Below, in pieces: positions 1 to 21,912 of a stretch of 64,000 nucleotides of DNA. The notes beneath the pieces are model-generated. The model did not search any database and was not told the DNA's origin. It was given only the letters and a program-made list of their open reading frames with translations. The DNA lies in NCBI GenBank assembly GCA_965261595.1, contig CBDHDG010000007.1, positions 1,319,030 through 1,383,029 of the forward strand, in the 5' to 3' direction. Origin of the DNA: a bacterium (lineage in GTDB: Bacteria; UBA8248; JACPRG01; G963555815). The position numbers and the translations under genes were made by a program. How positions within the stretch are numbered: position 1 is the first letter of the stretch; the number at the start of each line of letters is the position of its first letter.

Positions 1-13
1 CTTCACGTCGTCC

Positions 14-883: not shown

Positions 884-1658
884 GTTGCTTCACTCCAGAT
901 TTACAGGCACTTTCCGTATTTTTTACAATGCGAGAACTACACAATATCCCAAGATGTCCTAGACGGTTGAGCAGGCGCTATTGTATCCTACTGGCGAACT
1001 TGCCATGCGGTGCAGCCCGCAGAATGGCCTTTAGCGCTCGCTGCACAGCCTCAAGTGAACCGAGATTCCCCATGTGGATGCTTCCAGCGTCTTGAACATG
1101 TCTCGACATTGGCCACGTGGCAAGTCGCCGGGCCATTGCAGAGCATCATCGAGCCGATTCCATGCGACGAATGTCCGATCGCGGCGTTGGTTGGCGAAAC
1201 TGACGTTTGGGCTGTTTTCGAGACACATCGCGTCTCTTGTCTATATGGATGCGCGGTATCCCGTGCAACGCGACAATCACCGTGGGCTTGGCGCGCGCCT
1301 GACGGAGACAATTCGGTATCCGTCCACCTTGTGCAGCATAGCCAGCTAAGCCACCGTATTCATTCCACTCAAAGCGCATTGCGGGTTCCCGATCATCGAA
1401 CCTACCTCCACGATATCTTTGCCTCTTATGCAATCGCGCATCCAAGCGGCCAGTCGCCAAGCCCGCAACCCGGCAGCCACGCTGGGTTTTCTCCGCAGCA
1501 GGCCGGCAAGGCACCGCGCTTCCGTCATCGCATAGCAATCGGCCCGTTTCCATAGCGGGAGCGTGCATGGCGTCTTCGGTCGAAATCGGCGCACGAATTC
1601 CCCTTCACCGCCGCGGCGTGTCGCGAGGACCTCAGGAACGCGGTTTCATTCATCCCCT

Positions 1659-2132
1659 TCACGGCGCGCCTCCATTCATCAAAGCCCTCCGCGCAGTTCC
1701 TCGATCGCCAGGGCCCTGTGGTTCTCTCGCAGACATACTCCATGATCGGCATCGTCTCCAGCGCCCGGCCGTCCCCGGCCGGCAATTCACTTCCAGATGC
1801 GCCTCGACATAGCGCTCCGCCAGGTCGGCCACGGTCGGCTCAGGCGCGGGCTGCTCCGGAAACGCCTCCTCGCCCTTCTTCAGACGGTCGATGACCTCCG
1901 CGGCCACACGCCGCGCATCCTCGACCGTGATATCGACCTTCCGGCCGATCGCCACACGCTTCAGCGCGCCGCCCGGCGCCCGCGCGTGGACCACATAGAC
2001 CTTGCGCCCGCTGGCATGGATCCGCACACCGAACCCGGTGAGGTCGCAGTCGTAGAACACCCGGTCGCCGCGCTCGACCGCGAGCGCCTCGACCACGCGC
2101 CTGCTCAGCTTGAGAGTGCTCCTTCGAGGCAT
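1659..2132 (-). pseudogene. Truncated tyrosine integrase (arm-DNA-binding DUF4102-like N-terminus only)
   Basis: MPRRSTLKLSRRVVEAL..DRVFYDCDLTGFGVRIHASGRKVYVV..PTVADLAERY; similarity stops near 1770 and no catalytic domain is present. Confidence 0.8.
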
Positions 2133-2565
2133 GCGCCGCTCTCCCATCCTCCCGTGACCGAACGCACCGTCGCCCGGAGTTCCGCCGCCGACCCGTCCGG
2201 CCGCCGGGAATTCCGTGAACACCCAGATACCAAACGGTGTGCAATGCCAGTGTATGAGAGTCCATCCGTGACGCAAATGCAAGCCCTAAGTGGGCTTTCT
2301 CATACATCGTAACTTATTGTAAATGATAGTATTTGACCCCTCGTTGTAGCCCGGAAGCATCCGAACCTATCACTCCTTCAGGTTTCCATGATCTACGGCA
2401 CTCTTGTGCAATATACGGGGATTTCCACGTGCTCAAAAGTATCGTATCTATTTGTTATCACTTGTTATTCTCACCAACATCGCAACCGGATTTGATCAAT
2501 ATACAGGCATGACATGTCCGTGAAAGTCGTAATCATTCGGTTGTGCCGTGATGGGCGGGCTGACT

Positions 2566-3393
2566 TTAGCGGTTGAGAGTTCGTTTCCAATTTTTTCTGA
2601 GAGGGCGAAGCCAGATGTCCTTTTTCGGTTGGGCGCGTCTCGTGTACCTGTCGTAGCGCCCACGTCCCTGAGTGGTTCCGACGTGGATCCAGCCCGATGC
2701 CCTGTAGACGGCGCCAGTGTAGCGCAGGGTCTGGACGAAGGTCTCGATGGCACGGGGGTTCTGTTGTAGCGCCCGGCTCAGTCCTCGGGCAGGCGCTGGC
2801 GGACGATGGCGAGGATGAGCGAGCCCAGGTTGGGGATCGCGATCCAGGGCAGGATGAGGAAACTCGGGTTGTCGACCACGAGGGGGAGGTTCTTCTCGCG
2901 CAGTTGCGGCGTCCAACCGATGAAGCGGTCGCGTGGCGCGAGCTTCCACGCGGCGGTGTAAAGCCGAGCATGGCGACCGGTCGTGGACGGCGTAGCGCAT
3001 CTGGGTGCCGACGAGGGTTTTGTAGCCGAGATAGTGGTAGCGGGCGACGAACTCGTTCCACCGCTTGCCCTCGCGGGTGTCGCGGACGACGAGCCGCAGG
3101 TCGAGCGGGTGGACCTCGTCGAGGGTTGCCGGCGCCGGGATCAGCGGCGGTTCGATCTCCGGCCCGAAGACGATCGGGCCGGGCCGGTTCTGCCGCCACT
3201 TCGGCGGCGGCAGGGCGATCAGGCCGTCGGGCTTGAGCCAGCGGATGTTGAGCCAGCGGATGCGCCGACAGAACTCCTTCGACAGCGCATGGCGGTTCAA
3301 CGCCGGAGGGCCGCCGATCAGCGAGCACAGCAACCCCATCTCTTGCGTCGTGAAGTCACGGCCGTAATAGTGGCACTCGACCGCGCCGCTCAT
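2566..3393 (-). pseudogene. DUF4338-domain protein (IS-associated type), frameshifted
   Basis: YYGRDFT, WNEFVARYHYLGY, ETFV..YTGAVYRASGWIHVGTTQGRGRYD, KDIWLRPL motifs; the middle part is in another frame; 15-bp tandem duplication ttgagccagcggatg at 3233-3262. Confidence 0.75.
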
Positions 3394-3549
3394 CCCGGCG
3401 CCATGAGGGCGCGCCTGCGTTCCCCGCTCATCGACCACGGCAACCATGGCGATGGGTTGTCCGGTGTGGGGTTCGTATAGATCATTTCAATTCGTGCAGA
3501 TTCTGATCCATCACGTAGTTCTGGTCCCGGATTCGCTCCTTGGTCGGAT

Positions 3550-4734
3550 TGGAGTTGCCCCGTTTTTGTGGACACCTTCAGACTGTGCGGAGGAGGTGTT
3601 CAGATGCCGAAAACTCATTCACCCTACGCGCCGGAGTACCGGCGCCAGATGGTTGAGCTGGTTCGCTCGGGCCGTACGCCCGGGGAGCTGGCCCGGGAGT
3701 TCGAGTGTTCCGCTTCGGCGATTCGCAACTGGGTGCGCCAGGCCGACCGCGACGAGGGCCGTCGTGAGGACGGTCTGACAAGCTCAGATCTCGAGGAGCT
3801 ACGGCGGCTTCGTCGGGACAATCGCCAGCTTCGCGAAGAGCGGGAGGTCCTAAAAAAGCCGCGGTCTGGTTCGCACGGGAGACCGGCTCGGTGCCGGGGA
3901 GGTCTTCGGGCTCGTGAAGGCGAACCAGGCCTGTCATCGGGTGGCCACGATGTGCCGGGTGCTGGGTGTCTCCTCCAGCGGGTACTACACGTGGCGAAGC
4001 CGTGGGCGTTCCAATCGTGCGAAGCACGACGAGGCGTTGGGGGGCACGATACGGGCCATCCACGAGGCATCTGGCGGCACCTACGGGGCGCCTCGGGTCC
4101 ATGCCGAGCTGATGGCCGGCGGCTGCCGGGTGAGCCGCAAACGGGTGGCTCGTCTGATGCGCGAGGCGGGCTTGGCCGGGGTGAGCCGACGCCGAGGCAC
4201 GCGCACTACGCGGGTGGACCAGAGCCATTGTGTGGTCCCGGACCGGGTCGAACGCCAGTTCCAGGCCGATGCGCCGGATCGGCTTTGGGTGGCCGACGTG
4301 ACCTACGTGCCGACCTGGACGGGGTTCGTGTACCTGGCCATCGTGCTCGACGTGTTCAGCCGCCGGGTGGTGGGATGGCCCATGACCCACCATCTTCGCA
4401 CCGAACTGGTGCTCGGGGCGCTGAACATGGCGTTGGGACAGCGCCGCCCCGACGGGGTCGTACATCACTCCGACCAGGGCTCGCAGTACACCGCGCTTGC
4501 CTTTGGGAAGCGGTGCCGGGAGATGGGGGTGGTTCCGTCGACCGGGTCGGCCGGGGATTGCTTCGACAACGCCATGGCCGAGAGCTTGTTCGCCACGCTG
4601 GAGTGCGAGCTCATCGACCGGCGCTCGTTCCGTACCCAGGCCGAAGCGCGCATGGCGATCTTCCAATTCATCGAAGGCTGGTACAACCCACGCCGTCGTC
4701 ATTCGGCCCTGGGTTACCTCAGCCCCAACGACTA
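3550..4734 (+). mobile_element. IS3-family element, right end lost to the adjacent IS
   Basis: IRL TGGAGTTGCCCCGTTTTTGTGGACACC at 3550; orfA from 3604 (HTH, LKK slippery A-run); orfB from 3914 with DDE motifs WVADVTY, HHSDQGSQY, NAMAESLF. Confidence 0.9.
3604..4734 (+). pseudogene. IS3 transposase orfA/orfB (A-run one base short; 3' end clipped)
   Basis: The natural orfA tail AAVWFARETG sits one frame off at taaaaaagcc (about 3851); orfB is cut at YLSPNDY. Confidence 0.75.
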
Positions 4735-4800
4735 TGACCTGCCCGGCGTTTTTTGTACCATCAGAAGTGAGAGAGGATCTCACGAAGGAGGAAGCTGGAC

Positions 4801-5079
4801 ATGCCGGTCCGAAAGTACAAAGCAGAGCAGATTGTGACCTTGCTGCGGCAGATCGAAGTGCAGATGGCAAACGGGAAGACGGCTCCCGAAGCCTGCAAGG
4901 AAGCCGGCATCCACACCCAGACTTATTACCGCTGGCGGAAGGAATATGGAGGGCTGAAGCTGGATCAGGCGAAACGGCTGAAGGAGCTGGAGAAGGAAAA
5001 TACGCGGTTGAAGCGACTGGTGGCCGAGTTGTCGCTGGACAAGCAAGTGCTACGGGACGTAGCCCAGGGAAACTTCTGA
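4801..5079 (+). CDS. IS3/IS407 transposase OrfA
   Basis: TYYRWRKEYGGLKLDQAKRLKELEKENTRLKRLVAELSLDK; ends at a GGGAAAC slippery site. Confidence 0.9.
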   Translation: MPVRKYKAEQIVTLLRQIEVQMANGKTAPEACKEAGIHTQTYYRWRKEYGGLKLDQAKRLKELEKENTRLKRLVAELSLDKQVLRDVAQGNF

Positions 5080-5870
5080 GCCCTGAGCGGCGACGTTGCG
5101 CGGTGGAGTGTGCGCGGGGGAAGTATGGCCTGTCGGAACGGCGCGCCTGCCGGCTGCTGGGGCAATGGAGGGGAACACAACGATACCGGCCGATGGATCG
5201 GTTGGACGAGGATGAGCTGACACGAGCGGTGGTGGCTCTGGCGGCGCAGTACGGGCGGTACGGTTATCGACGAATCACGGCGTTGCTGCAGAGCTCGGGC
5301 TGGCCGGTGGGGAAGGATCGGGTGCAGCGAATCTGGCGGCGGGAAGGTTTGAAAGTGCCGCAGAAACAAAGGCCCCGAAGACGGCTCTGGCTGAACGGCG
5401 GTTCCTGTGTGCGACTGCGGCCGGAGCATCGGAACCACGTCTGGAGCTATGATTTTGTCAGCGCCAGAACGCACGATGGAAGAACGCTGCGGCTTCTGAC
5501 GCTGCTGGACGAGGTTACGAGGGAGTGCCTGGCCATCCGAGTCGAGCGGAGGATAGGCAGCCCAGCGTTCCTGGCCCGGGACTTGCGCCAGTGGCTGGGG
5601 AAGGTCGGAACCGGAACGTTATACATCGAACCCGGTAGTCCCTGGGACAATGGGTATTGTGAGAGTTTCAATGGGAAGCTGAGAGACGAATGCCTGAATG
5701 GTGAGATCTTCTATTCGTTGAAGGAGGCCCAGATTGTGATTGAGCCATGGCGGGAGGAATATAACACCCGGAGACCGCACTCGGCGCTGAATTATAGGCC
5801 CCCGGCGCCGGAGGTCTGCACTCCATTCCTTCCCCCCAAACCGGGTTCACAGCCTCAGGCTGTCATGTAA
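5076..5870 (+). pseudogene. IS3/IS407 transposase OrfB lacking the second catalytic Asp segment
   Basis: WSYDF and NGYCESFNGKLRDE are present, but RRIGS joins directly to PAFLA, so the IRSDNG region is missing. Confidence 0.8.
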
Positions 5871-5911
5871 ACTCTCTCCCAATAAAATGGTACAAAAAAT
5901 CGGTCTGGTCA

Positions 5912-6906
5912 CCCCCTCGGAACCCGCGAAACGAAGCTCTGGCCCGCAGAAACACCCGGCGATCGTTGCTCTCTGGTCGACCATTCTGCAGGTAATCGGC
6001 GATTGCTTCCCCGATTTGCTCGGTCAGGGGATACACACTGCGTCGTCCGCCCTTGAGCGTCACAGTCAGTGTTCCAGCCCTCCAGTCGACATCATTCAGT
6101 GTCAGGAAGGCGATCTCACTGGCACGCAGTCCAAGCCGGGCGAGCAGCAGCAAAATAGCGTAGTCGCGGCGTCCTACGGGCGTGCTGCGGTCCACGCTTG
6201 TCAGCATCTTCTGTACCTGGTCGGCTGCAATGCCTCGTGGAACCGATGTCATGGCCCAACCGGCGACGGTCGGGACCTGGTGAGCCAGGTCCGGCATCCT
6301 CGCGGCATGGGCATGCACATAACGCAGGAAAGCGCGTAACGAGCCGGTCACCGACTTCATGCTCCCCCGGCTGGTCAATCGGGCCGTCTCATGGCGCACA
6401 AACGCAATCAGATCGCCAGCGTTCAGCTGCGACAGCACCACCTCTCCGTTACCAAACCGGTGCTGGAGAAAATTGCGGGCTCGGATGACGTAATTCACGA
6501 TGGTGCCGTCGGCCAGATCACGCTGCTCGCGCAGATACTGCGCGTACTTTTGTACACAGCGTTCAGCCGGTGTCGGGGGACGGACGGGTTCCTCCGGGGA
6601 GATCACGCCCACGCATCGCAAGTAATCCATCAGATGCCTGAGAGAAGGCCGGGCGCTCAGTTGTTGAGAGCGCAGGCTCCTTGTCCGCAAGTATTGAGTT
6701 ACGTCTTCAGACGACAGGCTGGGCAGCTCGATTTGCTGCTGCTCAAGCCATTCGCTGAAAAGAACTATCCGTCGAAGCTGTTGATGGATCGTGTCGTGAG
6801 AATACTTCCGGGCGTTCAATGCTTCTGCAAGTCCCCTCAGCCACGGGACCAGCGGCCCGACTGGGCGTCGTTGCAAGACAAATTGGTCGTTGATCGGATA
6901 CCTCAT
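5912..6906 (-). pseudogene. RIT-element RitA-like tyrosine recombinase, C-terminally truncated by IS
   Basis: GPL..W N-terminus; GRRDYAILLLLARLGLRASEI and LKGGR motifs; HxxR and catalytic Tyr region replaced by the IS end at 5911. Confidence 0.8.
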
Positions 6907-6948
6907 AGCAGGCTCCTTTCCCCTCAGGGGTTGTTGTTGGAGCCTTTA

Positions 6949-7036
6949 CTATGTCGCGTAATTGGGGGCGCCGATGGCGTACTTCTGAAACCTTTTCAAT
7001 CAGATATCACCACGCATTCCTGATTACGCCACATAG
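6949..7036. repeat. Inverted repeat at the probable RIT element end
   Basis: CTATGTCGCGTAAT (6949-6962) and ATTACGCCACATAG (7023-7036) are 13/14 complementary; upstream of ritA. Confidence 0.6.
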
Positions 7037-7322
7037 GCCGGTTCGCGAAATAGTGGTGCAACTGGGGGCCGCCGCCGGGGACAGGGAACCGCGAGCCCTG
7101 GGGCGAGCGCATCGACATCAAGATGGCGTGAGTGTGGGACGGTGCGCCGTTTCCCGCCCTGTCCTCCACTTGGTCGGCATGTCCATTCACCGGCCGGTTT
7201 CCCGAACGCGCCGATCCCCGCCGCGAGACCGAGGCCGGGCGGCGGCCGGGCGAAGCGCGGGCGCGGAGGCGAGGCAGGCGCCATGCCCCGGCCCCGCGCG
7301 CCGTCCCAACGGAGGAACCGCC

Positions 7323-7565
7323 ATGACCGATACCAACATCACGGAGGAGCACCGACGGGCCTTCTCGGCCCTGACCAGCGGCGACTGTGAGAACCTCGCT
7401 CTCTTTTCCTGCTTCTGTGACGGCCGGCCCACGGCGGCCATCGCCGCGGTGACCGTCCACCCGCCGGCCCACGAAGACGGCGAGGCGGAATACCGCGTCA
7501 GCCCGCTGTTCATCGGCCTCACGCCGGACATGATATTAACCGACCATGACGGGCGCGAGGCATGA
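7323..7565 (+). CDS. Small conserved mobile-element protein (DUF6117-like)
   Basis: GGAGG RBS; F.AL..GD..NLALFSC..DGRPTAAI....V.PLF pattern; overlaps the next start (ATGA). Confidence 0.6.
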   Translation: MTDTNITEEHRRAFSALTSGDCENLALFSCFCDGRPTAAIAAVTVHPPAHEDGEAEYRVSPLFIGLTPDMILTDHDGREA

Positions 7566-8458
7566 GCGCCGACGTCATGCGCCGCCGGTCTCCGGCCGAT
7601 CCGGGCCGCATCCCGCACATTCCCTTGCCGCCGGAATGCCGGGAGATGATCCGGCGCGGCGCGCTCTTCGCCCTGAACCACAGCGGCGGCAAGGACAGCC
7701 AGGCGATGACGATCCTTCTCGCCCGGATCGTCCCCCGGCAAAACCTTCTGGCGGTTCACGCCCCGCTCGGCGAGGTGGAATGGCCTGGCACCATCGAGCA
7801 CATCGAGGCAACGATCCCGGGCGGCGTGCCCCTCGTTTTCGCGCCCGTCGCTTCCGGCAAGACGCTTCTCGACAGGATCGAGGAACGGGGCCGGTTCCCC
7901 TCGGCGTCCGTTCGCTGGTGCACTTCCGATTTCAAGAGATCGCCCATCGAACGCGAGCTACGGCGTTATCTCAAGGCCCATCCCCGCTTCGGCAGATGCG
8001 TCGTGAACTGCATGGGGCATCGCGCCGACGAAAGCGCCGCCCGCGCCGTGCGGGCCGCCTGGAGACGCAACGCCCGCAACAGCAAGGCGGGCCGGGAGTG
8101 GGTGGACTGGCTTCCGGTCCATGCCCTCTCGACCGCCGACGTGTTCCGGGTCATCCGCGACGCCGGCCAGTCGCCGCACTGGGCCTATGCGGCCGGCATG
8201 ACGCGGCTCTCTTGCAGCTTCTGCATCCTCGCGTCCCGCCAAGACTTCCGCACCGCGGCGCGGCTCCGTCCGGCGCTTTATCGCCGCTACGCCGCGCTCG
8301 AGCGGCGCATCGGCCACACGCTGTCGCCGTCGCGAATCCCCCTGCCCGAACTGACGGGCGTGCCGGCCGAGGCCGGGCAAACCCCCTTCGGAGGAGTCTC
8401 GCATGCCGCTCGATACCGCCGTGACCGAGCGCGCCGCCCGCATCCTGATCGAACGTGA
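7562..8458 (+). CDS. PAPS reductase-family (PP-loop) protein
   Basis: SGGKDS PP-loop, RWCTSDFKRSPI, G.RADES..R, RLSCSFC. Confidence 0.85.
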   Translation: MSADVMRRRSPADPGRIPHIPLPPECREMIRRGALFALNHSGGKDSQAMTILLARIVPRQNLLAVHAPLGEVEWPGTIEHIEATIPGGVPLVFAPVASGKTLLDRIEERGRFPSASVRWCTSDFKRSPIERELRRYLKAHPRFGRCVVNCMGHRADESAARAVRAAWRRNARNSKAGREWVDWLPVHALSTADVFRVIRDAGQSPHWAYAAGMTRLSCSFCILASRQDFRTAARLRPALYRRYAALERRIGHTLSPSRIPLPELTGVPAEAGQTPFGGVSHAARYRRDRARRPHPDRT

Positions 8459-9090: not shown

Positions 9091-11409
9091 ATGAACCACA
9101 TCGCTTCCCCGCCCGAACCCGTCATCCGAACCATCCCGCTGAGCCGGCTGGACCTGGCCCCGGAGAACGTGCGCAAGACCCCGGCCGGCTCGGCTGGGAT
9201 CGCCGAGCTCAAGGCCTCCATCGCAGCCCACGGTCTGCTCGAGAACCTGGTCGCCCGGGCCCAAGGCCCCGGTCCGGACGGCATCGGCCGCTACGCGGTC
9301 ATCGCCGGCGGGCGCCGTCTCGTCGCCCTGCAGGCTCTCGTCAGCGATGGTGTGCTCGATGAGGACCACCCCGTGCCCTGTTTGATTGCCGTCAATGGCG
9401 ATTGCGGAGAGCTGTCTCTCGCAGAGAACGTGGTCCGCATCGCCATGCACCCGGCCGACCAGGTGATCGCGTTCTACAGGCTCGCCGAATCCGGCGTGAC
9501 GATATCCGCGATCGCCGCGCGCTTCGGCATCTCCGAGCGCCTGGTCGAACAGCGCCTGCGGCTCGGCCGTGCGGCCCCGGAACTGCTCGACGCCTACCGG
9601 GCCGAGGAGATCGACCTGGAGACCCTGAAGGTCTTCGCGGTCACGACCGACCACGGCCGCCAGAGGGCGGTCTGGGCCCAGGTGAAGGACCAGGGCTGCC
9701 GGCCAGGGGCCTGGCAGGTGAGGCGCATGCTGACCGAGGACCGCGTGCCGGGAACCGCCGCCATCGCGCGCTTCGTCGGTATCGATGCCTACGAGGCCGC
9801 GGGCGGGGCCATCACCCGGGACCTCTTCGCACAGGAGGACGACCGTGGGATCTGGTTCGACGACCCCGCGCTTCTGAACAAGCTCGCCATGCAGAAGCTC
9901 CAGGACACGGCGGACGAGCTGGACACCTGCTGGAAGTGGGCCGAGGCGGCGCCGGAGTTGGACTGGAGCGCGACCGCGCGGTTCGGGCGCATCCGGCCCG
10001 AGCCCGCGGAGCCGACCGACGAGGAGCGGGCCGAGCTCCAGCGGCTGAGCGCCCGCCATGACGAGCTCGCCGACATGGACGACGAAGACTGGACTGGGGA
10101 GCTCGTGGAAGAGGCGGAAGGCATCGAGAGGCGTCTCGACGAGATCCACGCGGCCGTGGAAGCGCGGGCCACCTTCCGGCCCCAGGACATGGCCATGGCC
10201 GGGTGCATCGCGACCATCGGCCAGGACGGCGCGCTCCAGGTCATCCAGGGCCTGGTCAGGCCCGAGGACATGCCCGAGAAGGCCGGCAAGGACGCAGACG
10301 GACTGGAAGCCGACACCGGGGACAGCGGCGCAGCCGAGCTTGGCCGCGTCGATGGCCCCGAGATCTCGGCCCCCATCGCTTCGCCTCCCGACCCGCGCGC
10401 CAAGGCCCGGGAGGAGGCCGGAGTGGGCATCGGCCTCGCCGACGACCTGCGGGCGGTCCGCACGGCCCTGGTCAAGGCGCATCTGGCCAAGGACTACGAG
10501 GCGGCGTTCGATCTCATGCTGTTCCAACTCGCCCGGGCCGTGTTCACGAACGTCCACAGGGCCGACGCCCTCGACGTCGCCGTCAAGGAGACCGCCGACC
10601 GGCCCACATCGCGCATGAACGACGAGGCGTTCGCCAACTGGAGCCCGGGCGAGGCCATGCTGGCGGACCGCTCCGGCCTCTCCCTCGACTGGATGGAGAA
10701 GGAGGACGAGGGCGAGTCCTTCGCGGCCTTGCAGGCCCTTCCCGAGGGGGAGAAGCAAGCCCTGTTCTCAGCAGCCGTGGCGCGCACGGTCAAGGGCCAG
10801 CTCGCCTTCGAGCCCGACGCCCGGCCCGAGCTGGAAGCCACCATCGCCCGGCTCGACATCGACTTCGCGAAGCACGTGCGCCCGACAGAGGACATGCTCT
10901 GGTCGCGCATCAGGAAGGACCGGATCCTCGCCGTGGCGCGCGAGACCCTGGGCCCTGCCTGGGCCTCGGCGCGCTCGAAGTACAAGAAGGCCGACCTCGC
11001 CAAGGCGATGGAAGGGGCTTTCGCGGCCGGAGACCCGCCCGTCGGACTCACCGCCTCTGCCAGAGCCGCCGCTCTCGCCTGGACTCCGCCCGGCTTCGCG
11101 CCCTTCGACACGGGCCGCGTGGAGGAGCCGGACAGGGACGTCCCGCCGGCTGGCGAACCCGAACCGGATCCCGCTCCGGTTCCGGACACCATGGAAGTCG
11201 TTGATGACGGCGTCCCCGATACGGTCGGCGGCGATGCGTCGGAAGCCTCGGGTCCCGGTGTGCCGGCAGACAAGGACCCCGGCCCGGAGACCGCCAATGG
11301 CGGCCCCAGCATCGACGTGTCCCAGGAGAACGTCCTCACCCCGCCACGGACCAACGGCCGTGACAGCGGCGACGGGCTGGACATCCCCGAGTTCCTGCGC
11401 CGGGCCTGA
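9091..11409 (+). CDS. parB: ParB/RepB/Spo0J-family protein with acidic linker and FtsZ-like C-terminal peptide
   Basis: NVRKT, GLLENL, AGGRRL, SLAENVVR, HTH (IAARFGISERLVEQRLRL); ends GLDIPEFLRRA; GGAG RBS. Confidence 0.85.
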   Translation: MNHIASPPEPVIRTIPLSRLDLAPENVRKTPAGSAGIAELKASIAAHGLLENLVARAQGPGPDGIGRYAVIAGGRRLVALQALVSDGVLDEDHPVPCLIAVNGDCGELSLAENVVRIAMHPADQVIAFYRLAESGVTISAIAARFGISERLVEQRLRLGRAAPELLDAYRAEEIDLETLKVFAVTTDHGRQRAVWAQVKDQGCRPGAWQVRRMLTEDRVPGTAAIARFVGIDAYEAAGGAITRDLFAQEDDRGIWFDDPALLNKLAMQKLQDTADELDTCWKWAEAAPELDWSATARFGRIRPEPAEPTDEERAELQRLSARHDELADMDDEDWTGELVEEAEGIERRLDEIHAAVEARATFRPQDMAMAGCIATIGQDGALQVIQGLVRPEDMPEKAGKDADGLEADTGDSGAAELGRVDGPEISAPIASPPDPRAKAREEAGVGIGLADDLRAVRTALVKAHLAKDYEAAFDLMLFQLARAVFTNVHRADALDVAVKETADRPTSRMNDEAFANWSPGEAMLADRSGLSLDWMEKEDEGESFAALQALPEGEKQALFSAAVARTVKGQLAFEPDARPELEATIARLDIDFAKHVRPTEDMLWSRIRKDRILAVARETLGPAWASARSKYKKADLAKAMEGAFAAGDPPVGLTASARAAALAWTPPGFAPFDTGRVEEPDRDVPPAGEPEPDPAPVPDTMEVVDDGVPDTVGGDASEASGPGVPADKDPGPETANGGPSIDVSQENVLTPPRTNGRDSGDGLDIPEFLRRA

Positions 11410-11435: not shown

Positions 11436-11476
11436 GCGCCCCGCCGGTCCCGCGCCGGCGGGGCGCTTTTCGTTTC
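11436..11476 (+). terminator. Rho-independent terminator-like hairpin
   Basis: GCGCCCCGCCGG-7nt-CCGGCGGGGCGC followed by TTTTCGTTTC. Confidence 0.7.
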
Positions 11477-11501: not shown

Positions 11502-13244
11502 ATGAACGACATTCCCGTCACGGCGCCCCGGCCCTGGCCCGGCCGCATCCGGGCGCGGATCCATGACAGCGCCCTCCAGCGCGTCACCCGGCTCTGGGCC
11601 GCCACAACCATCGACACCCTCGTGGAGAGTTTCCAGAATGGCAGAAGGGCCGGCGCGACGCGCGTGTCGGTGATCGTTACCGATCCCGCCGGTGAGCCAT
11701 CCGACAACAGCGCCCTGACCGTCACCGATGACGGCATCGGCATCGCCGATCCCGCCGTGCTCCTGAGTCTTGGCGAGACCGGATGGGACGGGGAGCTTGC
11801 CGGCCGAGAGGACGCGGCCGGGATGGGATTCGCCAGCCATGCCCGCCAAGGCTGCCGCATCGTCTCGCGTCCCCGCTCCCGTGGCGGCGAGCCCGGCCCC
11901 GGCTGGCGCGTCGATCTCAGCCCCGCGCATTTCCTGGGGGAGGAGGAGGCGACCGTCGTCCCGGAGGACGGCGCGCCCTGGCCCCATGGCACGGCCGTCA
12001 GCTTTACGGCCTCGGGCGACCGCGATTCGATCCGCCGGGCGGTCGAAGCCGCGGCCCGCCATTATCCGCTCCCGGTCACGCTGGACGGGGAGACCGTGCC
12101 CCGCCGGGCCTTTCTCGACGGGGCCGTTGACGCCGAGCCTTGGCGGGGACTCGTCTTCGGCGTGTTCGTGGGCCGCAGCCGCGGCTACAACGAGCCCGAC
12201 CTCAACTTCCACGGCCTCACCCTGCCGGTGCGCCTGCCCACGGTCGATCCCGTGACCGGCCAGACCTGGTCGGTCCGCGCCGAGGTCGTGAGCTGTCCCG
12301 AACTCGAGCTGGTGCTGCCGGCTCGGAAGGAGGCGGTCGAGACCCCTTTCCTGAACGAGACGCGAGAGGCCGCGCGGCTCGCCGTCTACCGGGCCATGGC
12401 GTCGACCGAGGCGCCGCCGCGCATCGCCTTCGAGGACTGGACCCGGGCGCGGGAAGCCGGGATCGAGCTTCCGATACCGTCCCCCCAACTGCGTCCCTGG
12501 CGTCCCTGCATCGCCGATATCGACGATTGGCGCGAGGCGCCCGCTCTCGCATCCGTATCCAACGATGCGCTCGTGATGCACGTGGATCCGGAACCGCCCG
12601 AAGCCCAGGCTCTCTGGCGCGCCGCCGAACATGGCGGGATAGCCCCACGGCTCTTCGAGGCCGACCGCCGGCTCGACGGCTACGGCTGGTACGACGCGCT
12701 TCCCCGCGTCACCGATGTCCGCACCGAGATCGTGATCAACAACGAGGCCCGTCCGCCGGAGGACTACCGGACTCCGTCAGAAGGGTCCAGCCCCGTCGAG
12801 CCGCCTCCACGGCCGGATGGGATCCGCATGCGTCTCGATGTCGAGGGCCGAGGGGGAAAGACCGGGACTCTCGATCTCGATACCGATCTCGCCTTCGCCG
12901 GCGAGGCCTGGGCCTGGCTTCCCGATGCGAAGCCGCTGGTCATGGCCGAGAGCGCCCTTGAGCCCGCCGAACTCGCCGAGCTGCTGCGCGCCGCCTGGTT
13001 CTCTCCGTCGGATGAAGCCGATTCGGACAGTTGGGAGACCCAGCGCCTGCGCTTCGACGAAGAGGCCATGCACATAGCCGTGAAGCTCCTTTGCTCGGCG
13101 GACGAGGCCCGCCGGACATCCATCGCCGAAGCGGTCAGGCGCGAGCTGTTCTGGCTCATCCCCCGGGACCGCGAGGTCACCATTGCCGTGCGCGGGAGGG
13201 AGGTCAGCGTCGATCTCGGCGCCGCCAAGGAGACTGCGCGATGA
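11502..13244 (+). CDS. GHKL (HATPase_c) ATP-binding protein
   Basis: ESFQNGRRAGA, VTDDGIGI, AAGMGFAS, HGTAVSF motifs. Confidence 0.8.
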   Translation: MNDIPVTAPRPWPGRIRARIHDSALQRVTRLWAATTIDTLVESFQNGRRAGATRVSVIVTDPAGEPSDNSALTVTDDGIGIADPAVLLSLGETGWDGELAGREDAAGMGFASHARQGCRIVSRPRSRGGEPGPGWRVDLSPAHFLGEEEATVVPEDGAPWPHGTAVSFTASGDRDSIRRAVEAAARHYPLPVTLDGETVPRRAFLDGAVDAEPWRGLVFGVFVGRSRGYNEPDLNFHGLTLPVRLPTVDPVTGQTWSVRAEVVSCPELELVLPARKEAVETPFLNETREAARLAVYRAMASTEAPPRIAFEDWTRAREAGIELPIPSPQLRPWRPCIADIDDWREAPALASVSNDALVMHVDPEPPEAQALWRAAEHGGIAPRLFEADRRLDGYGWYDALPRVTDVRTEIVINNEARPPEDYRTPSEGSSPVEPPPRPDGIRMRLDVEGRGGKTGTLDLDTDLAFAGEAWAWLPDAKPLVMAESALEPAELAELLRAAWFSPSDEADSDSWETQRLRFDEEAMHIAVKLLCSADEARRTSIAEAVRRELFWLIPRDREVTIAVRGREVSVDLGAAKETAR

Positions 13245-13825: not shown

Positions 13826-14227
13826 ATGAAACTCATGACCGAAAAGCAGCGCGAAAAACTGCTCGCCAACGGCGCCGACCGCGGGGCCGACCGCGGGGCC
13901 GACCATGTCCCGGTGGTCAAGCTCTTCAACCCCTGCGGAGCGGGAACGTGGATCGTCACGGAGCTGGATCCCGAAGAACCCTCCGTGGCTTTCGGACTCG
14001 CGGATCTCGGCTTCGGCTTTCCCGAGCTGGGCAGTTTCAGCCTGGAGGAACTGTCCGCCTTCCGGGGCCCCTTCGGCCTCGGGATCGAGCGGGATCTGCA
14101 TTTCGAGGGCAAATACAGCCTCGCCACCTACGCCGACGCCGCCCGGGCCGCCGGCCATATCGTCGAGTACGGTCCCGAGCTCGACGCCGCCGCGCACCGC
14201 CGCACCCACGCGGCAGCCGGTGCCTGA
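13826..14227 (+). CDS. DUF2958-domain protein
   Basis: PVVKLFNPCGAGTW..TE, FGLADLGFGFPELG, GLGIERDLHF; 12-bp tandem repeat encoding ADRG x2. Confidence 0.85.
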   Translation: MKLMTEKQREKLLANGADRGADRGADHVPVVKLFNPCGAGTWIVTELDPEEPSVAFGLADLGFGFPELGSFSLEELSAFRGPFGLGIERDLHFEGKYSLATYADAARAAGHIVEYGPELDAAAHRRTHAAAGA

Positions 14228-14386: not shown

Positions 14387-17300
14387 ATGCCCCACGCCCT
14401 GACGGCGGTGGAGGGCGGGCCTGTGAACGCTCGTTCGCACGCCCCCCGGTCCATTCCGTCCATGCCCACGGCCGCCCTGTTCGCCGCGGCCCAGACCCTG
14501 TTGCCTGTACTGACAGCCGGCCGGCCTCTCGACGCGGCCACCCTCCGCCAAGCCATGACCCAGGCCTTCGGGGCCACCGACGCCGAGGGGGCCTGGGTCT
14601 GGAAGGACGCCTACGAGGCCGCCGAAGCGGCCGTCGTGCTCTTCCTGAAGCGCTACGGCCGGGCCATGTGCCGCCGGGCCGGAGCCGGCGGCCCGCCCGC
14701 CATGCTGGCCCTGCTGCAAAAGATCGCGGCCCTGGAGCCCTCCCACACGAAGCGATCCGAGTCCCAGGTCCGGCTCCAGCAGTTCTCCACGCCCCTGGGC
14801 CTCGCCTATGCGGCCTTGCAGGCGGCCGCCATCCGGCCCGGCGACATCGTGCTCGAACCCAGCGCCGGGACCGGGATCCTCGCCGTCATGGCCGAGTGCG
14901 CCCTCGGGGCCGGCGGCGAAGGCGCGCTCCATCTGAACGAGATCGCCGGGGCCCGGGCCGGCCTCCTGTCCCGGCTCTTCCCCAAAGCCTCGGTGACCGG
15001 GTTCAACGCCGAGGCCATCGCCGACCGTCTCCCGGACGTCCGGCCGACCGTGGTGCTCATGAACCCGCCGTTCTCCGCGAGTCCGGGGGTGCATCGCATC
15101 CGCCATGACGCTGACCTGCGCCACCTGCGCTCGGCCTTCGCCATGCTGGGGCCTGGGGGCCGGCTCGTGGCCGTCACCTCGGCGGGCTGCATGCCCGGGG
15201 ACAGCGCCTGGAAGGACGCCTTCGAGCGCCTCGATCCCCCGGCCCGCGTCGTCTTCTCCATGGCCATTGACGGCCGGGCCTATGCCAGACGCGGGACCAC
15301 CTTCGACACCCGCCTGACCGTGCTCGACCGGAGCGGGGACCGCGAGCATGCCGCGATCGATCCCGCGGCCCGGGCGGACAGCTCCGCCGAGCTCCTCGAA
15401 GCCGTCATGGCGGGCGTGCCGGCGCGCCTCGCCACTGGCGCTGTCGAGACCCCGGACACAGCCGCTCCGATCCGGGACCTCTTCGGCGACACGGCCCCGG
15501 TCAAGTCAAAAGAGCGCACGATCACGGCCAGGCCCGCCCACCGGCCAGCCGAAGACAAGGACCGCCGTCACGACTGGGGGCCTGTGTCCGAGCTCGCGTA
15601 TGCGACGGCCCCGGTCTCCGGCGATGCCCCCGCCGGCTCCGAGACCGCTACCGGCCCCTATGCGCCCTGGAAGCCGGGCATTGTCCATGTCCCGGGCGCC
15701 GTCGTCCATCCCACGCCCCTGGTCCAGTCCGCGGCCATGGCCGCCGTACCGCATCCCGGCCCGTCCTACCGTCCGGTGCTGCCCGCGCGCGTGGTGACCG
15801 ACGAGCTCCTGTCCGACGCCCAGATCGAGAGCGTCGTCCTGGCCGGCGAGGCCCACAACCGCCATCTTTCGGCCCGCTACCGGATCGGCTCGGGCTGGGA
15901 GACGGTCCACCGCTGCAATGATGACGGTGGTGACGGTGACGCCACTAACGACGACGGAGAAGTACTCTCCGAACCCGTGCGCTTCCGCCGCGGCTGGATG
16001 CTGGGCGACGGCACGGGATGCGGCAAGGGCCGGCAGGTCGCCGGGTTCCTCCTCGACAACCGGCTCCGCGGAAGGAAACGGGCCCTGTGGCTGTCGCAGT
16101 CCGACAAGCTCGTGGAGGACGCCCGCCGGGACTGGGCCGCCCTCGGGGGGAACGAGGACGATGTGATCCCCTTGGGCAAGTTCCGCCAGGGAGCGGAGAT
16201 CCCGCTCCCGGAGGGCATCCTGTTCGCGACCTACGCCACGCTGCGCTCGCCGGCCCGCCAGGGTAAGGCCTCGAGGCTCGAGCAGATCGTCTCCTGGCTC
16301 GCGGGGGGAACGGAAGAAGACCAGCGTCACGCCTTCGACGGCGTGATCGTGTTCGACGAGGCCCACGCCATGGCCAACGCGGCCGGCTCCAAGGGAGCGC
16401 GCGGGGAGGTCAAGCCCTCGGCCCAGGGACGGGCCGGACTCAGGCTTCAGAACGCACTGCCCGACGCCCGTGTTCTCTACGTCTCGGCCACCGGGGCCAG
16501 CACCGTGCCCGGCCTCTCCTACGCCGGACGCCTCGGCCTCTGGGGAGCGGAGGAGACGCCCTTCGAGACCCGGGGGGATTTCGTGTCGGCCATGGAGGCG
16601 GGAGGCGTCGCCGCCATGGAGGTGGTCGCCCGGGACTTGAAAGCCCTCGGGCTCTACCAAGCCAGGGCCCTGGCCTATAACGGCGTGGAGATCGACATCC
16701 TGCAGCACCCGCTGGCGCCTGAGCAGCGGCGTATCTACGACGCCTATGCAGGCGCCTTCAAGGTGATCCACGCCAACCTCCAGGACGCGCTCGAGGCCAC
16801 CGGCGTCATGCAGGGAGACTCGACCCTGAACAGGAACGCCAAGTCCGCGGCCCTGAGCGCCTTCGAGGGGGCGAAACAACGCTTTTTCGGCCACCTGCTG
16901 ACCGGCATGAAGTGCCCGTCCCTGATACGCGCCGTCGAGGCCGATCTCGATGCCGGCCGGTCGGCCGTGATCCAGCTCGTGTCCACGGGCGAGGCCCTGA
17001 TGGAGCGCCGCATCGCCGAGATCCCCGCGTCCGAATGGGACGACCTCTCCATCGATCTCACGCCCAGGGAATACGTTCTGGACTTCCTGGCCCACGCCTT
17101 CCCGGTGCAGCTCCAGGAGCCCTTCACCGACGAGGAGGGCAACCTCATGAGCCGGCCCGTGTTCGATGAAAACGGCAACCCCGTGCTCTGCCAGGAGGCC
17201 CTGGCCAAACGCGAGGCCCTGATCGGGAAGCTGGCCTCGCTTCCGCCCGTGCAGTCGGCCCTGGACCGGATCATCCACCACTTCGGCCACGAGGCCGTGG

Positions 17301-18871
17301 CCGAGGTCACGGGCCGGTCCCGCCGGGTGCTCAGGATCGCGGACGGCCGGGGCGAGCGCCTGGCGCTGCGCAGCCGGCCCGCCTCCGCAAGCCTGACCGA
17401 GACCGCCGCCTTCATGGACGGGGAGAAGAAGATACTCGTCTTCTCCATGGCCGGCGGCACGGGACGCAGCTACCATGCCGATCTTGCATGCGGCAACACC
17501 GCGCGCCGGGTCCACTACCTGCTTGAGCCCGGCTGGCGGGCCGATCAGGCCATACAGGGGCTGGGCAGGACCCACAGGACCCACCAGGCGTCGGCCCCCG
17601 TGTTCCGGCCCGTGACCACGGACGTGAAGGGCGAGAGGCGGTTCATCGCCACCATCGCGAGAAGGCTCGACTCCCTCGGGGCCATCACCCGGGGCCAGCG
17701 GGACTCCCAGACCGCCATGGCCGGCGATGACGCGGCGCTGTTCCGCGAGAGCGACAACCTGGAGAGCCCCTACGCCAAGGCGGCGTTGAGAAGGTTCTAC
17801 ATCGCCCTGTGGCGCGGCCGCATCCCGGACTGGTCCCTCAGCCGCTTCGAGGAGGCCACCGGCCTCGCCCTCACCTGGGAGGGAGCGCTCAAGGACGACC
17901 TGCCGCCCATGTCCAGGTTCCTGAACCGCCTGCTGGCGCTGCCCATCGACGAGCAGAACGCGCTCTTCGCCGAGCTGGAGTCCCTCATCGCGGAGAACGT
18001 CGAGCAGGCGATCGAGGCCGGCGCCCATGACATCGGCGTGGAGACCCTGCGGGCCGAATCGCTCGCGGTGGCCGGCCGCGAGACCCTCTACACCCACCCC
18101 GGGACCGGAGCCGCGACCGATCTCGTCGAGATCCTCCTCCGCGACCGGCTGGAGCCGACCCCGGCGGACGCGGCGCTCGAGATCGGCGCCCTGGGCGGGG
18201 ACAGCCGGCCTGAACTCGTCGTCAACAGCCGCTCGGGACGGGGGGCCGTTGTCCTGCCCGCGCCGTCCAGGATGCTCGACGACGGCGGGGTGCAGGAGCG
18301 GGTGCGCCTCCTGCGGCCCACGGCCCGGGAAGCCATGGCCAGGGCCGAGCTCGAGGCCTCGAACTGGCGCAGGGCCTCGGAGGGGGAGTGGCGTTCCCGC
18401 TGGGAGGAGGAGATCGCCGGCCTGCCGACGCATACCGAGTCCCGCTTCTGGCTCGTCACCGGGCTGCTCCTGCCGATCTGGGACCGGCTCGGAATGGAGA
18501 ACATGCGCGTGCGCCGGCTGTTGACCGACGCCGGCGAGGCGATGATCGGCCGCGTGCTCGACGCCGAACAGGTACGGGCCGCGCGCACCTCTTTCGGCCT
18601 TGCCGGCGGTCCCGGCATGACCCCCCTCGAGACCTTCGAGGCGGTCATGGGGCGAGGCGCGTCCTTCGGCCTCGCGAACGGCTGGCGCCTCGCGCGCCGG
18701 CGCATCATGGGGGCCGACCGCGTCGAGATAGAGGGTCCCGTTGACGGCGACATCGCCGCGCTCAAGCGCATGGGGTGCATCGTCGAGATCGTCTCCTGGC
18801 GCTCACGCCTCTTCGTCCCCGACGCCGGCGTGCTCGAACGCGTCATCGAGCGCTGGCCCATCGCGGCCTGA
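14387..18871 (+). CDS. N6-adenine methyltransferase + strawberry-notch (SF2) helicase fusion, DarB-like
   Basis: VLEPSAGTG and MNPPF MTase motifs; GDGTGCGKGRQ, DEAH, SAT, QGLGRTHR helicase motifs. Confidence 0.9.
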   Translation: MPHALTAVEGGPVNARSHAPRSIPSMPTAALFAAAQTLLPVLTAGRPLDAATLRQAMTQAFGATDAEGAWVWKDAYEAAEAAVVLFLKRYGRAMCRRAGAGGPPAMLALLQKIAALEPSHTKRSESQVRLQQFSTPLGLAYAALQAAAIRPGDIVLEPSAGTGILAVMAECALGAGGEGALHLNEIAGARAGLLSRLFPKASVTGFNAEAIADRLPDVRPTVVLMNPPFSASPGVHRIRHDADLRHLRSAFAMLGPGGRLVAVTSAGCMPGDSAWKDAFERLDPPARVVFSMAIDGRAYARRGTTFDTRLTVLDRSGDREHAAIDPAARADSSAELLEAVMAGVPARLATGAVETPDTAAPIRDLFGDTAPVKSKERTITARPAHRPAEDKDRRHDWGPVSELAYATAPVSGDAPAGSETATGPYAPWKPGIVHVPGAVVHPTPLVQSAAMAAVPHPGPSYRPVLPARVVTDELLSDAQIESVVLAGEAHNRHLSARYRIGSGWETVHRCNDDGGDGDATNDDGEVLSEPVRFRRGWMLGDGTGCGKGRQVAGFLLDNRLRGRKRALWLSQSDKLVEDARRDWAALGGNEDDVIPLGKFRQGAEIPLPEGILFATYATLRSPARQGKASRLEQIVSWLAGGTEEDQRHAFDGVIVFDEAHAMANAAGSKGARGEVKPSAQGRAGLRLQNALPDARVLYVSATGASTVPGLSYAGRLGLWGAEETPFETRGDFVSAMEAGGVAAMEVVARDLKALGLYQARALAYNGVEIDILQHPLAPEQRRIYDAYAGAFKVIHANLQDALEATGVMQGDSTLNRNAKSAALSAFEGAKQRFFGHLLTGMKCPSLIRAVEADLDAGRSAVIQLVSTGEALMERRIAEIPASEWDDLSIDLTPREYVLDFLAHAFPVQLQEPFTDEEGNLMSRPVFDENGNPVLCQEALAKREALIGKLASLPPVQSALDRIIHHFGHEAVAEVTGRSRRVLRIADGRGERLALRSRPASASLTETAAFMDGEKKILVFSMAGGTGRSYHADLACGNTARRVHYLLEPGWRADQAIQGLGRTHRTHQASAPVFRPVTTDVKGERRFIATIARRLDSLGAITRGQRDSQTAMAGDDAALFRESDNLESPYAKAALRRFYIALWRGRIPDWSLSRFEEATGLALTWEGALKDDLPPMSRFLNRLLALPIDEQNALFAELESLIAENVEQAIEAGAHDIGVETLRAESLAVAGRETLYTHPGTGAATDLVEILLRDRLEPTPADAALEIGALGGDSRPELVVNSRSGRGAVVLPAPSRMLDDGGVQERVRLLRPTAREAMARAELEASNWRRASEGEWRSRWEEEIAGLPTHTESRFWLVTGLLLPIWDRLGMENMRVRRLLTDAGEAMIGRVLDAEQVRAARTSFGLAGGPGMTPLETFEAVMGRGASFGLANGWRLARRRIMGADRVEIEGPVDGDIAALKRMGCIVEIVSWRSRLFVPDAGVLERVIERWPIAA

Positions 18872-20147: not shown

Positions 20148-20237
20148 GGGGTGAACCAAGGGGCCGGAGAGAGAGGCTCTCCCCCCTTTTTACATCACCC
20201 GTTGTCTTCCACACCCTTAACTCTAAGGAGAATGATC

Positions 20238-20663: not shown

Positions 20664-20691
20664 GCGCGCATTCCGTTTCCTCCCTCTACCT

Positions 20692-20722
20692 GGGCCGGCG
20701 CTTCGCGCGTCGGCCCTTTTTC
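20692..20722 (+). terminator. Rho-independent terminator
   Basis: GGGCCGGCGC-loop-GCGTCGGCCC then TTTTT. Confidence 0.7.
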
Positions 20723-20857
20723 TTGCTGCCCGTTCCGAGACAGCGCCCGTTCGGGCCTCGCGCCAGCGCTGCGCGCGGCGCTTCGCCCTCCGGCGCCGGC
20801 CGGAGGCGGAGGCCGGCCGGTATCGGGCGTTCCCCGTCCATCCAGAGGAGGCCCGTT

Positions 20858-21871: not shown

Positions 21872-21912
21872 AGAGCGGGGGAGGGGTGAACGGCTCCAAA
21901 GGAGAAGAGAGC

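Follow-up and report, generated by a model that had tools for sequence, protein, structure and literature searches.

A HerB/ParB2-family protein of an F-type conjugative element with a conserved C-terminal peptide resembling the tail of FtsZ

The gene and the architecture of its product

The stretch of DNA analyzed here (henceforth the window) comprises 64,000 nucleotides of the bacterial contig CBDHDG010000007.1 and carries what is, by its gene content, an F-type (MOBF) integrative conjugative element, with transfer genes for TraL, E, K, B/V, C, W, U, TrbC, N, F, H and G, plus TraD, and a gene for the MobF relaxase TraI (40841-43858). At positions 9091..11409 of this window, on the forward strand as are all parts of the gene described below, lies a gene for a 772-residue ParB-like protein, which a first-pass annotation of the sequence had described as ending in a peptide similar to the C-terminus of the cell-division protein FtsZ, borne on a flexible linker. 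The open reading frame (ORF), the disorder predicted by AlphaFold2 and the comparison with FtsZ tails all bear out this description. The ORF starts with an ATG at 9091 and closes with a stop codon at 11407-11409; a Shine-Dalgarno-like GGGAG stands 6-11 nucleotides 5' of the ATG, and the initial methionine is invariant in an alignment of 50 sequences. Downstream on the same strand we found an intrinsic-terminator-like element (11436..11476), made up of a hairpin (11436-11466) with a 13-bp stem, 12 of whose pairs are G-C, followed by TTTTCGTTTC; the terminator scan gave two overlapping sites 3' of the gene, against 0.6 expected in shuffled sequences. A search of the protein database with the product recovered 3,564 homologues at E <= 0.001.

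The AlphaFold2 model, computed from a 57-sequence alignment, has a mean predicted local distance difference test (pLDDT) score of 82.2, with a folded part spanning residues 5-683, pLDDT below 50 at 684-749 and 751-764, and a four-residue helix at 767-770. The first domain, D1 (residues 1-118; 9091..9444), is predicted to adopt a ParB-type CTPase fold. Its Box II is formed by G73-G74-R75-R76, with N26 and R28 lying in the Box I region and E112, N113 and R116 in the Box III region; among these N26, R28, G73, R76 and N113 are unchanged across 57 diverse sequences. By analogy with ParB-type CTPases, D1 may be expected to bind CTP. Foldseek matched the first ~210 residues to Noc, ParB and KorB in alignments of ~210 columns, the best match being Noc (7nfu, E 6.5e-9). 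The second domain, D2 (119-217; 9445..9741), whose boundaries were set from the hhalign offset to D2 of the F-plasmid protein HerB (residues 137-235), is a predicted helix-turn-helix DNA-binding domain recognized by Foldseek and by a match to Pfam HTH_ParB that, at E 9.5e-4, lies under the curated cut-off. The third, D3 (218-398; 9742..10284), is specific to the family, is modeled with high pLDDT and aligns with the homologous protein of IncI1 plasmids. A disordered loop (399-431; 10285..10383), with pLDDT below 50 at 399-410, 412-415 and 428-431 and with 34% identity in block 401-420, connects it to D4 (432-683; 10384..11139), a helical domain with pLDDT above 90 that is homologous to the dimerization core of HerB, the hhalign alignment reaching up to query residue 636. 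Near the end of D4 stands a conserved anchor, AWTPPGF (663-669), in which W664 and G668 are invariant. A role for D4 in dimerization is carried over from the preprint on HerB (PMC13370423). Beyond the N-terminal ~210 residues Foldseek found no PDB fold match for D3 or D4, and the D3 and D4 of HerB are likewise reported to have none (PMC13370423).

Past D4 the chain continues into an acidic linker rich in proline and glycine (684-760; 11140..11370), recognized by its pLDDT below 50, its composition and its low identity among homologues; residues 675-760 comprise 19% P, 14% G, 14% D, 12% V and 9% E, with a net charge of -15. Disorder extends up to residue 764, that is, over about 11140-11382. 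A linker had originally been placed at about 11110-11376; it is indeed present and disordered, but starts about 30 nucleotides later. The protein ends in ...RTNGRDSGDGLDIPEFLRRA, of which the last 12 residues (761-772; 11371..11406) constitute the short linear motif DGLDIPEFLRRA, defined by its conservation and by its match to the conserved C-terminal peptide (CCTP) of FtsZ. Together with the stop, the codons of this tail (11371-11409) read GAC GGG CTG GAC ATC CCC GAG TTC CTG CGC CGG GCC TGA. The model does not predict the tail to dock on the protein's own domains, pLDDT being 57 and 48 in the last two blocks of ten residues.

Affinities with the HerB/ParB2 family

The protein had at first been taken for the ParB of the element, but its affinities place it instead in the ParB2/YfjB/HerB family. 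A profile of 57 sequences aligned by hhalign with the ParB2 of IncI1 plasmids gave a probability of 100 and an E-value of 5.8e-58 over 570 columns (query 7-636, target 32-619), and the identity between the two proteins is 34% over the N-terminal 349 residues. The GGRRLAA of the IncI1 protein (91-97), which aligns with the GGRR of the window protein, occupies the position given for Box II of YfjB (PMC13370423). Given this full-length homology and the placement of Box II, the window protein is, on sequence grounds, a member of the HerB/ParB2 family and not the partition ParB of the element. In a plasmid collection, tblastn recovered at least 5,000 records related to it, all at less than 60% identity, mostly enterobacterial and annotated as ParB, RepB or Spo0J, and megablast with the gene gave no match in the same collection. 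The IncI1 homologue among these is a 652-residue protein encoded in a cluster with the order ssb-DUF905-parB-psiB-psiA-...-ardA.

A canonical ParB of a ParABS partition system was rejected on the grounds that no ParA is found in the window, that the ParB models score below their cut-offs and that the C-terminal half corresponds to D3 and D4 of the HerB type. As had been noted at the outset, no ParA is visible: the ParA-type Walker box K[GS]GxGK[ST] does not occur in any frame of the window, and ParA families are absent from Pfam and NCBIfam scans of its proteins, a result confined to the window, as the 80 related loci considered below were not searched for ParA. Pfam ParB_N reaches 21.1 bits against a cut-off of 26.3, and both TIGR00180 (32.7 against 58.45) and PRTRC_parB (60.1 against 278.6) likewise remain below their curated cut-offs. 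Between 7000 and 25000 no convincing family of parS-type repeats was detected, the matches being of low identity and of a kind typical of G+C-rich DNA.

HerB is the new name of YfjB of the F plasmid, a ParB-like protein of four domains whose crystal structure was determined with bound CTP-gamma-S and which has in D4 a new dimerization core; 429 homologues have been counted on plasmids of Alpha-, Beta- and Gammaproteobacteria (PMC13370423). It is zygotically induced, forms nucleoid-associated foci, yields chromosomal peaks in chromatin immunoprecipitation and reprograms host transcription, and its effects are attributed to binding of the host chromosome and this reprogramming, not to segregation (PMC13370423). 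Its C-terminus comprises just a short predicted helix (PMC13370423). In the case of pED208, the ParB2 protein itself moves into recipients via the F-type system, giving up to 1e-3 recombinants per donor (PMC8406263). Given its likeness to F HerB, the window protein may be presumed to bind CTP and DNA and to be expressed early after transfer.

With HerB of F and the ParB2 proteins of IncI and IncF plasmids the window protein shares the four domains, the CTPase box residues, the lack of a ParA and a location in a co-oriented block neighboring ssb on a conjugative element. In contrast to HerB and IncI1 ParB2, it alone has a disordered linker of ~80 residues and an FtsZ-like peptide: IncI1 ParB2 stops 23 residues past its anchor, at ...VPGWMCAPRPQMDATEHTTNLADAA, and the enterobacterial proteins are without the module. 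The neighboring genes also differ, with a methylase-helicase and a GHKL ATPase in the window as against psiB and psiA in the IncI/F cluster (PMC8406263), and relatives of the window's element are integrated in chromosomes whereas those of HerB are plasmid-borne. The family has been known since 2021-2026; its linker-peptide module is new as far as we have seen.

Conservation and distribution of the linker-peptide module

The proposal that the peptide is conserved while the linker diverges found clear support among the homologues. When the window protein is taken together with its 120 top-ranking homologues in the database, a C-terminal [DE][ILV]PxF[LM] is kept in 116 of 121 sequences. Five homologues are without it (P0011, P0046, P0088, P0091 and P0094), among which P0011 looks frameshifted, its end corresponding to another frame of the same DNA (compare the window ORF at 10203-11204). 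Measured over 116 homologues, identity to the window protein is 57-91% in the folded blocks and falls to 27-31%, with 16-29% gaps, in the blocks of the linker, and it stands at 75% in the last 12 residues. In the 50-sequence alignment P766 and F768 are invariant, and L769 and R770 nearly so. In nucleotide sequence, 38 distinct versions of the nine tail codons are present among 46 loci, with P, F, L and the first R fixed through two to five synonymous codons each; this constancy despite synonymous codon change indicates that the peptide is under purifying selection.

To gauge how often such an ending arises by chance, we used the window and 80 related loci (designated L002-L081), which amount to 1.5 Mb and, in six frames, to 7,153 stop-to-stop segments of at least 100 residues. 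The strict pattern [DE][ILVM]PxF[LM][RK] was present in the last 20 residues of 46 segments, and all 46 represent this gene. A looser pattern, [ILVM]Px[FWY][LIM][RK], has a single occurrence in the six frames of the window, at this gene, and no other window gene with such a tail emerged from this six-frame motif scan. A phmmer search of PDB with the last 30 residues returned no match at E <= 10, the query being too short for this to be informative.

The wider family was sampled through representatives of clusters at 50% identity. At E <= 0.001 there are 10,778 relatives among these; from the 150 best of them, 102 were kept as full-length by BLAST coverage. Among these 102, 48 have at least 25 residues past the D4 anchor W-x-P-x-G-F, and 41 of the 48 carry Px[FW][LM] near the end; a further 50 have shorter ends, with the motif in none, and in the remaining four, two of which have the motif, the anchor was not found. 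The module is present in about 40% of these diverse, best-listed representatives, and the extension past the anchor ranges from 27 to 186 residues among relatives. A FastTree tree of 114 sequences showed a patchy distribution, with at least seven changes of the tail-less state, and a concentration of the basic, FtsZ-like tail in the clade of the window protein (17 of 20 rows). Three sequences of this tree (P0163, P0185 and P0190) are labeled as non-basic solely because PGF[LM] in their D4 anchor matched the pattern; the count on the 102 sequences leaves the anchor out. A separate protein of 226-235 residues, encoded in two of the related loci (L026, 20570-21247; L061, 8395-9099), has DMPAWM ~10 residues from its C-terminus, which recalls the LPAWM variant of the ParB tails. 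The motif sits inside a run conserved between the two copies, and it was left out of the tail counts.

Resemblance of the peptide to FtsZ tails

The window tail, D-I-P-E-F-L-R-R-A-stop, fits the consensus [DE]-[IV]-P-x-F-L-[RK], as do the FtsZ tails of E. coli (DYLDIPAFLRKQAD), Legionella (YLDIPAFLRRQEEA), Paracoccus (NVEIPAFLRRQAN), Tistrella (LLEIPAFLRRQAN) and Bacillus (ALDIPTFLRNRNKRG). FtsZ of Tsukamurella (LDVPSFLQNRR) has a Q at the last consensus position, and the diverged tail of Acinetobacter FtsZ falls outside the consensus. Among alphaproteobacterial homologues of Tistrella FtsZ, 118 of 120 have the ending ..[DE]IPAFLRRQ[AS]N, and position x is A in every one of the 118. The LDIPEFLRR of the window equals the alphaproteobacterial L[DE]IPAFLRR at eight of nine positions, and the tails of two related loci (L035 and L036), with LDIPAFLRR, match it at nine of nine. 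Judged by these alignments, the likeness to FtsZ is real and is closest to the alphaproteobacterial proteins, and the peptide is a genuine, conserved short linear motif, carried by a HerB-family clamp, that is a near copy of the alphaproteobacterial FtsZ tail.

The similarity extends to the general layout. In FtsZ, a core is followed by a linker whose length and sequence are poorly conserved and then by a conserved peptide to which FtsA binds (bioRxiv 10.1101/2023.09.08.556907); what the window protein has in common with the FtsZ C-terminal linker (CTL) and CCTP (also termed CTC) is a variable disordered linker followed by a terminal [DE]-[IV]-P-x-F-L-[RK]-[RK]. The FtsZ tail is widely conserved and is bound by FtsA, ZipA, MinC, ZapD, ClpX and SlmA (PMC4117426), of which ZipA is confined to Gammaproteobacteria, with another reader, FzlC, confined to Alphaproteobacteria (bioRxiv 10.1101/2023.09.08.556907). 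In E. coli FtsZ, I374 and L378 have a critical role in binding to ZipA, FtsA, MinC and SlmA, and the changes D373E, I374V, A376P and K380M still support the essential FtsA and ZipA functions (PMC4117426). The FtsZ peptide binds ZipA, FtsA and SlmA with a Kd of 20-80 uM (PMC4117426). In FtsA its docking site is the 2B pocket. Among the constant residues of the ParB tails (I/V, P, F, L, R) are the equivalents of I374 and L378, which in the window protein are I765 and L769, and the positions that vary in them (D/E, I/V, x and the last basic residue) are those that are tolerant in E. coli FtsZ (PMC4117426).

The plasmid collection also contains 120 records with an FtsZ homologue, many of which are whole or partial chromosomes filed as plasmids; those of Rhizobium (17), Aminobacter (9), Bradyrhizobium (7), Sinorhizobium (5) and Agrobacterium (5) may represent true plasmid-borne ftsZ paralogues.

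Functional interpretation

We put at about even, i.e. a probability of roughly 0.5, the proposition that the peptide mimics the FtsZ tail and binds the readers of this tail, FtsA first. Under this proposal, a CTP-dependent DNA clamp such as F and IncI plasmids produce right after entry into the recipient would bear, on a linker of ~80 residues attached to D4, a peptide of 9-12 residues, so that two peptides would be displayed per DNA-loaded dimer and many per cluster. These would fill the CCTP-binding sites of host FtsZ-tail readers, in the first place the universal membrane anchor FtsA and, depending on the host, also FzlC, ZipA, MinC, ZapD, SlmA or ClpX. The most likely outcome would be a transient titration of the FtsZ anchor, with division delayed while the element establishes itself; in a related outcome, the clamp with its DNA would be brought to the membrane or the division site. 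Both the binding of readers and the effect on division are inferred. Competition with FtsZ is physically plausible, since free FtsZ fragments (354-383) inhibit growth in vivo (PMC10769210). More tentatively, and with rather less confidence than for reader binding as such, we envisage the DNA-loaded clamp as a multivalent decoy operating across many phyla, which would capture FtsA along with other readers and thereby take transient control of division or of the positioning of DNA at the membrane or mid-cell; the change from A to E at position x would then tune which readers are captured.

Relatives of the ParB-like protein with 59-67% identity occur in chromosomes or contigs titled as Alpha- and Gammaproteobacteria, Binatia, Thermodesulfobacteriota, Dehalococcoidia, Gemmatimonadota and Vicinamibacterales. 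The complete chromosomes among them, for example those with L003, L004, L008, L009, L016, L017, L025, L038 and L055, are labeled as at least six phyla, which suggests either a very broad host range or frequent transfer. A host handle as conserved as a reader of the FtsZ tail would suit this wide range. Some genomes have two or more copies (for example OZ253442.1, OZ253541.1, OZ245021.1 and CBDHFB010000011.1).

Several observations count against such mimicry. F HerB works without a tail of this kind, and the text of the HerB preprint reports no division phenotype and has no occurrence of the word FtsZ (PMC13370423). As F HerB is reported to bind the host chromosome and reprogram transcription rather than to act in segregation (PMC13370423), the earlier suggestion that the protein tethers the element to the divisome is also weakened. 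The copy is imperfect: the window peptide sits on a DNA clamp rather than on a tubulin, and has E at position x, where FtsZ has A, T or S, this E being fixed in 33 of the 38 distinct versions in the window's clade and found in none of 118 FtsZ tails; the QAN ending of FtsZ, or KQAD-type final residues, are absent from the element's tail. In distant members of the family the tails conform to [ILV]Px[FW][LM] and often continue into acidic or neutral residues (LPAFLSGDAA, LPAFLQD, LPAWMNN, DIPAFLED), unlike all six canonical FtsZ tails compared here, which have R, K or Q plus basic residues; a family-wide partner need not, therefore, require the basic part that FtsZ has. The strict tail is always accompanied by a neighboring GHKL gene, and tails in general by a Sno-like gene. 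Finally, some of the breadth in host range must be read with caution, as short metagenome-assembled contigs may carry a wrong host label.

The association with neighboring genes is the basis of the alternative that survives best, although we consider it unlikely: the peptide might dock an element-encoded partner, its likeness to FtsZ being convergent or incidental. The candidates are a 1494-residue Strawberry-notch-like (Sno-like) methylase-helicase (14387-18871, forward strand; AAA_34 at E 4e-107, Helicase_C_4 at E 3e-90 and a weak N-terminal methyltransferase match) and a 580-residue protein (11502-13244, forward strand). The latter matches no Pfam family at E <= 0.001, with a weak hit to HATPase_c_3 at E 0.021, and has a predicted fold (pLDDT 83.7; predicted template modeling score 0.77) that Foldseek relates to Hsp90/TRAP1, MORC and MutL with E-values from 1.5e-10 to ~1e-8; on the strength of this modeled fold it is a GHKL ATPase with a transducer-like middle domain. 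Relatives of the GHKL fold are dimerizing ATPases, of which MORC and MutL act on DNA, and phage ParB-CTPase folds are often fused to methyltransferases (PMC12704722). By docking such a partner, the DNA-bound clamp would bring an enzyme to incoming or host DNA, as ParB-methylase fusions do.

By tail type the 80 related loci divide into 44 with the strict basic tail, 14 with a non-basic tail, 13 with none and nine in which the ParB gene is incomplete. Elements with the non-basic tail occur in Sulfitobacter dubius, Thalassovita litoralis and Fulvimarina pelagi (L079, L081 and L074). Where at least 2.5 kb of downstream sequence is present, the GHKL gene occurs in 40/40 loci with the strict tail, 1/14 with a non-basic tail and 3/11 without a tail; two of the last three (L018 and L061, but not L012) look truncated or frameshifted. 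Among 55 loci with at least 8 kb downstream, 46 have both a tail and a Sno-like gene within 10 kb and five have neither, with three and one discordant. The order ParB, GHKL, DUF2958, Sno, SSB (single-stranded DNA-binding protein) is conserved.

Against a partner of this sort, the co-occurrences reduce to three independent contrasts (sign test p 0.25-1) that are neither significant nor dismissible, and they may mark one element lineage. Because the GHKL gene is missing from 13 of the 14 loci with non-basic tails, the ATPase is not a family-wide partner, and we reject it as an obligatory one; in the window's own clade it is still a possible partner. Pfam scans and Foldseek revealed in neither the Sno-like nor the GHKL protein any domain known to read FtsZ-type peptides, and the match of eight or nine out of nine residues to the FtsZ peptide of hosts would be left as an unexplained coincidence. 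Should the peptide nevertheless recruit the methylase-helicase or the GHKL ATPase, it would still represent a modular design of clamp plus docking peptide in a very large family.

We regard as improbable a further alternative, in which the peptide serves mainly as a degradation signal, recognized by ClpX or a different protease adaptor, and would keep an early clamp short-lived without any role at the divisome. ClpX is indeed among the readers of the FtsZ tail (PMC4117426), and the free, disordered C-terminus of the AlphaFold2 model would suit a degron; however, F HerB is transient without such a tail (PMC13370423), and a degron needs neither a linker of ~80 residues nor the strict retention of the residues that contact FtsA and ZipA. 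Charge past the core of the motif is not conserved in the family, where RR, GD, SGDAA and QD are all found. Many substrates of type IV secretion systems carry C-terminal signals, often positively charged. That the peptide is such a signal for the protein's own transfer is the least credible reading, for although the ParB2 of pED208 is translocated to recipients by the F-type system (PMC8406263), pED208/IncI-type ParB2 proteins are without linker and peptide, and such a role would sit poorly with the variable charge.

SSB, with its acidic linker and DDDIPF tip, follows the same design principle, in which a core that binds DNA is joined through an acidic, disordered linker to a short hydrophobic peptide at the terminus. 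In SSB, however, Pro and Phe are adjacent and Phe is the last residue, whereas the window protein has P-x-F followed by LRRA. The SSB tip needs the free carboxylate of its terminal Phe. Mimicry of the SSB tip was hence rejected on account of the spacing of the motif and the non-terminal Phe, and a beta-clamp-binding motif was rejected by comparison with the consensus of the Q-L-x-L-F type.

Delay of host division by mobile elements has precedents. Phage Kil and prophage DicB are division inhibitors of such elements. A delay of host division has likewise been suggested for the CbtA/YeeV domains in conjugative polyvalent proteins (PMC5512222). These are all folded inhibitors acting on FtsZ, MreB or MinC, and we found none of them described as displaying a copied FtsZ tail on a DNA clamp. 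SlmA, too, is bound to DNA and tied to the division machinery, but it reads the FtsZ tail (PMC4117426), of which the window protein carries a copy. Noc is a ParB-like CTPase with the fold that best matches the N-terminal half; it binds the membrane by an N-terminal amphipathic helix (PMC12704722) and not by a C-terminal peptide. Open-access PMC and bioRxiv full text yielded no account of an FtsZ-type tail on any ParB-like or mobile-element protein, in keeping with the initial impression that no system of this kind had been described; nor is one mentioned in the text of the HerB preprint (PMC13370423).

The FtsZ tail is a hub read by anchors, positioning systems and proteases. If the FtsZ-mimic proposal is right, this would be the first mimic of that tail in a mobile element, with a conserved host handle that could explain a broad host range, and it would provide plasmids and integrative conjugative elements with a new way of manipulating recipients within minutes of transfer. 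The proposal would also widen the host-reprogramming role of ParB-like proteins of leading regions from transcription to the cell cycle.

Genomic context

The gene belongs to a block of forward-strand genes that includes, besides the GHKL and Sno-like genes, those for a 3'-phosphoadenosine 5'-phosphosulfate (PAPS) reductase-like protein (7562-8458), a DUF2958 protein (13826-14227), an SSB ending in ...APIDDIPF (20151-20663), a DUF4326 protein (20473-22227) and a YspA/SLOG protein (22849-23859). The order from ParB to SSB is the one shared with relatives, and the Sno-like gene is kept beside tail-bearing ParB genes even at 38-42% ParB identity. The listed GTG start of the SSB is probably too far upstream, since its SSB domain begins at residue 34. 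With the hub tip DDIPF on its SSB, the element has, besides the ParB-like protein, a second DNA-binding protein in which a disordered tail leads to a docking peptide at the terminus.

Blocks of genes in one orientation that include methyltransferases and SSBs are characteristic of leading regions (PMC11541004), and the placement of the ParB-like gene in the leading region, as first proposed, is inferred from homology. The block with its methylase-helicase and SSB agrees with that placement; the tra operon, on the other hand, converges on the block in the window. It does so also in L020 and is co-directional with the block in L016, and in L020 traI-traD come after a truncated GHKL gene. The differing orientation, which suggests inversions or deletions, bears on which genes enter the recipient first.

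Scans of the window for tRNA genes as candidate integration sites and for Rfam families gave no hits. Its left flank (1-7500) has a lower G+C content of 0.55-0.64, which climbs near 8 kb, and contains an HNH-like ORF (14-883), an integrase arm-binding fragment (1659-2282), a weak DruA-like ORF (2566-3447), an IS3-type transposase (3568-5870) and a tyrosine recombinase integrase (5863-6906). A cargo island at ~24-40 kb is again lower in G+C (0.60-0.64, against 0.70-0.73 around it). It includes a type III Druantia-like pair on the forward strand (24833-34122; DruH3 at E 2.3e-41, DruE3 at 1900 bits), the first gene of which belongs to the YjiT/STY4851 family of NCBIfam. Next to this pair are two inverted IS3-type copies (35304-36622 on the reverse strand and 37685-39003 on the forward strand), which flank or interrupt a gene for an OLD/Gabija-like ATPase-TOPRIM protein, with its N-terminal part at 36694-37758 and its C-terminal part at 39059-40075, and a fragment of an rve integrase lies at 40310-40741.

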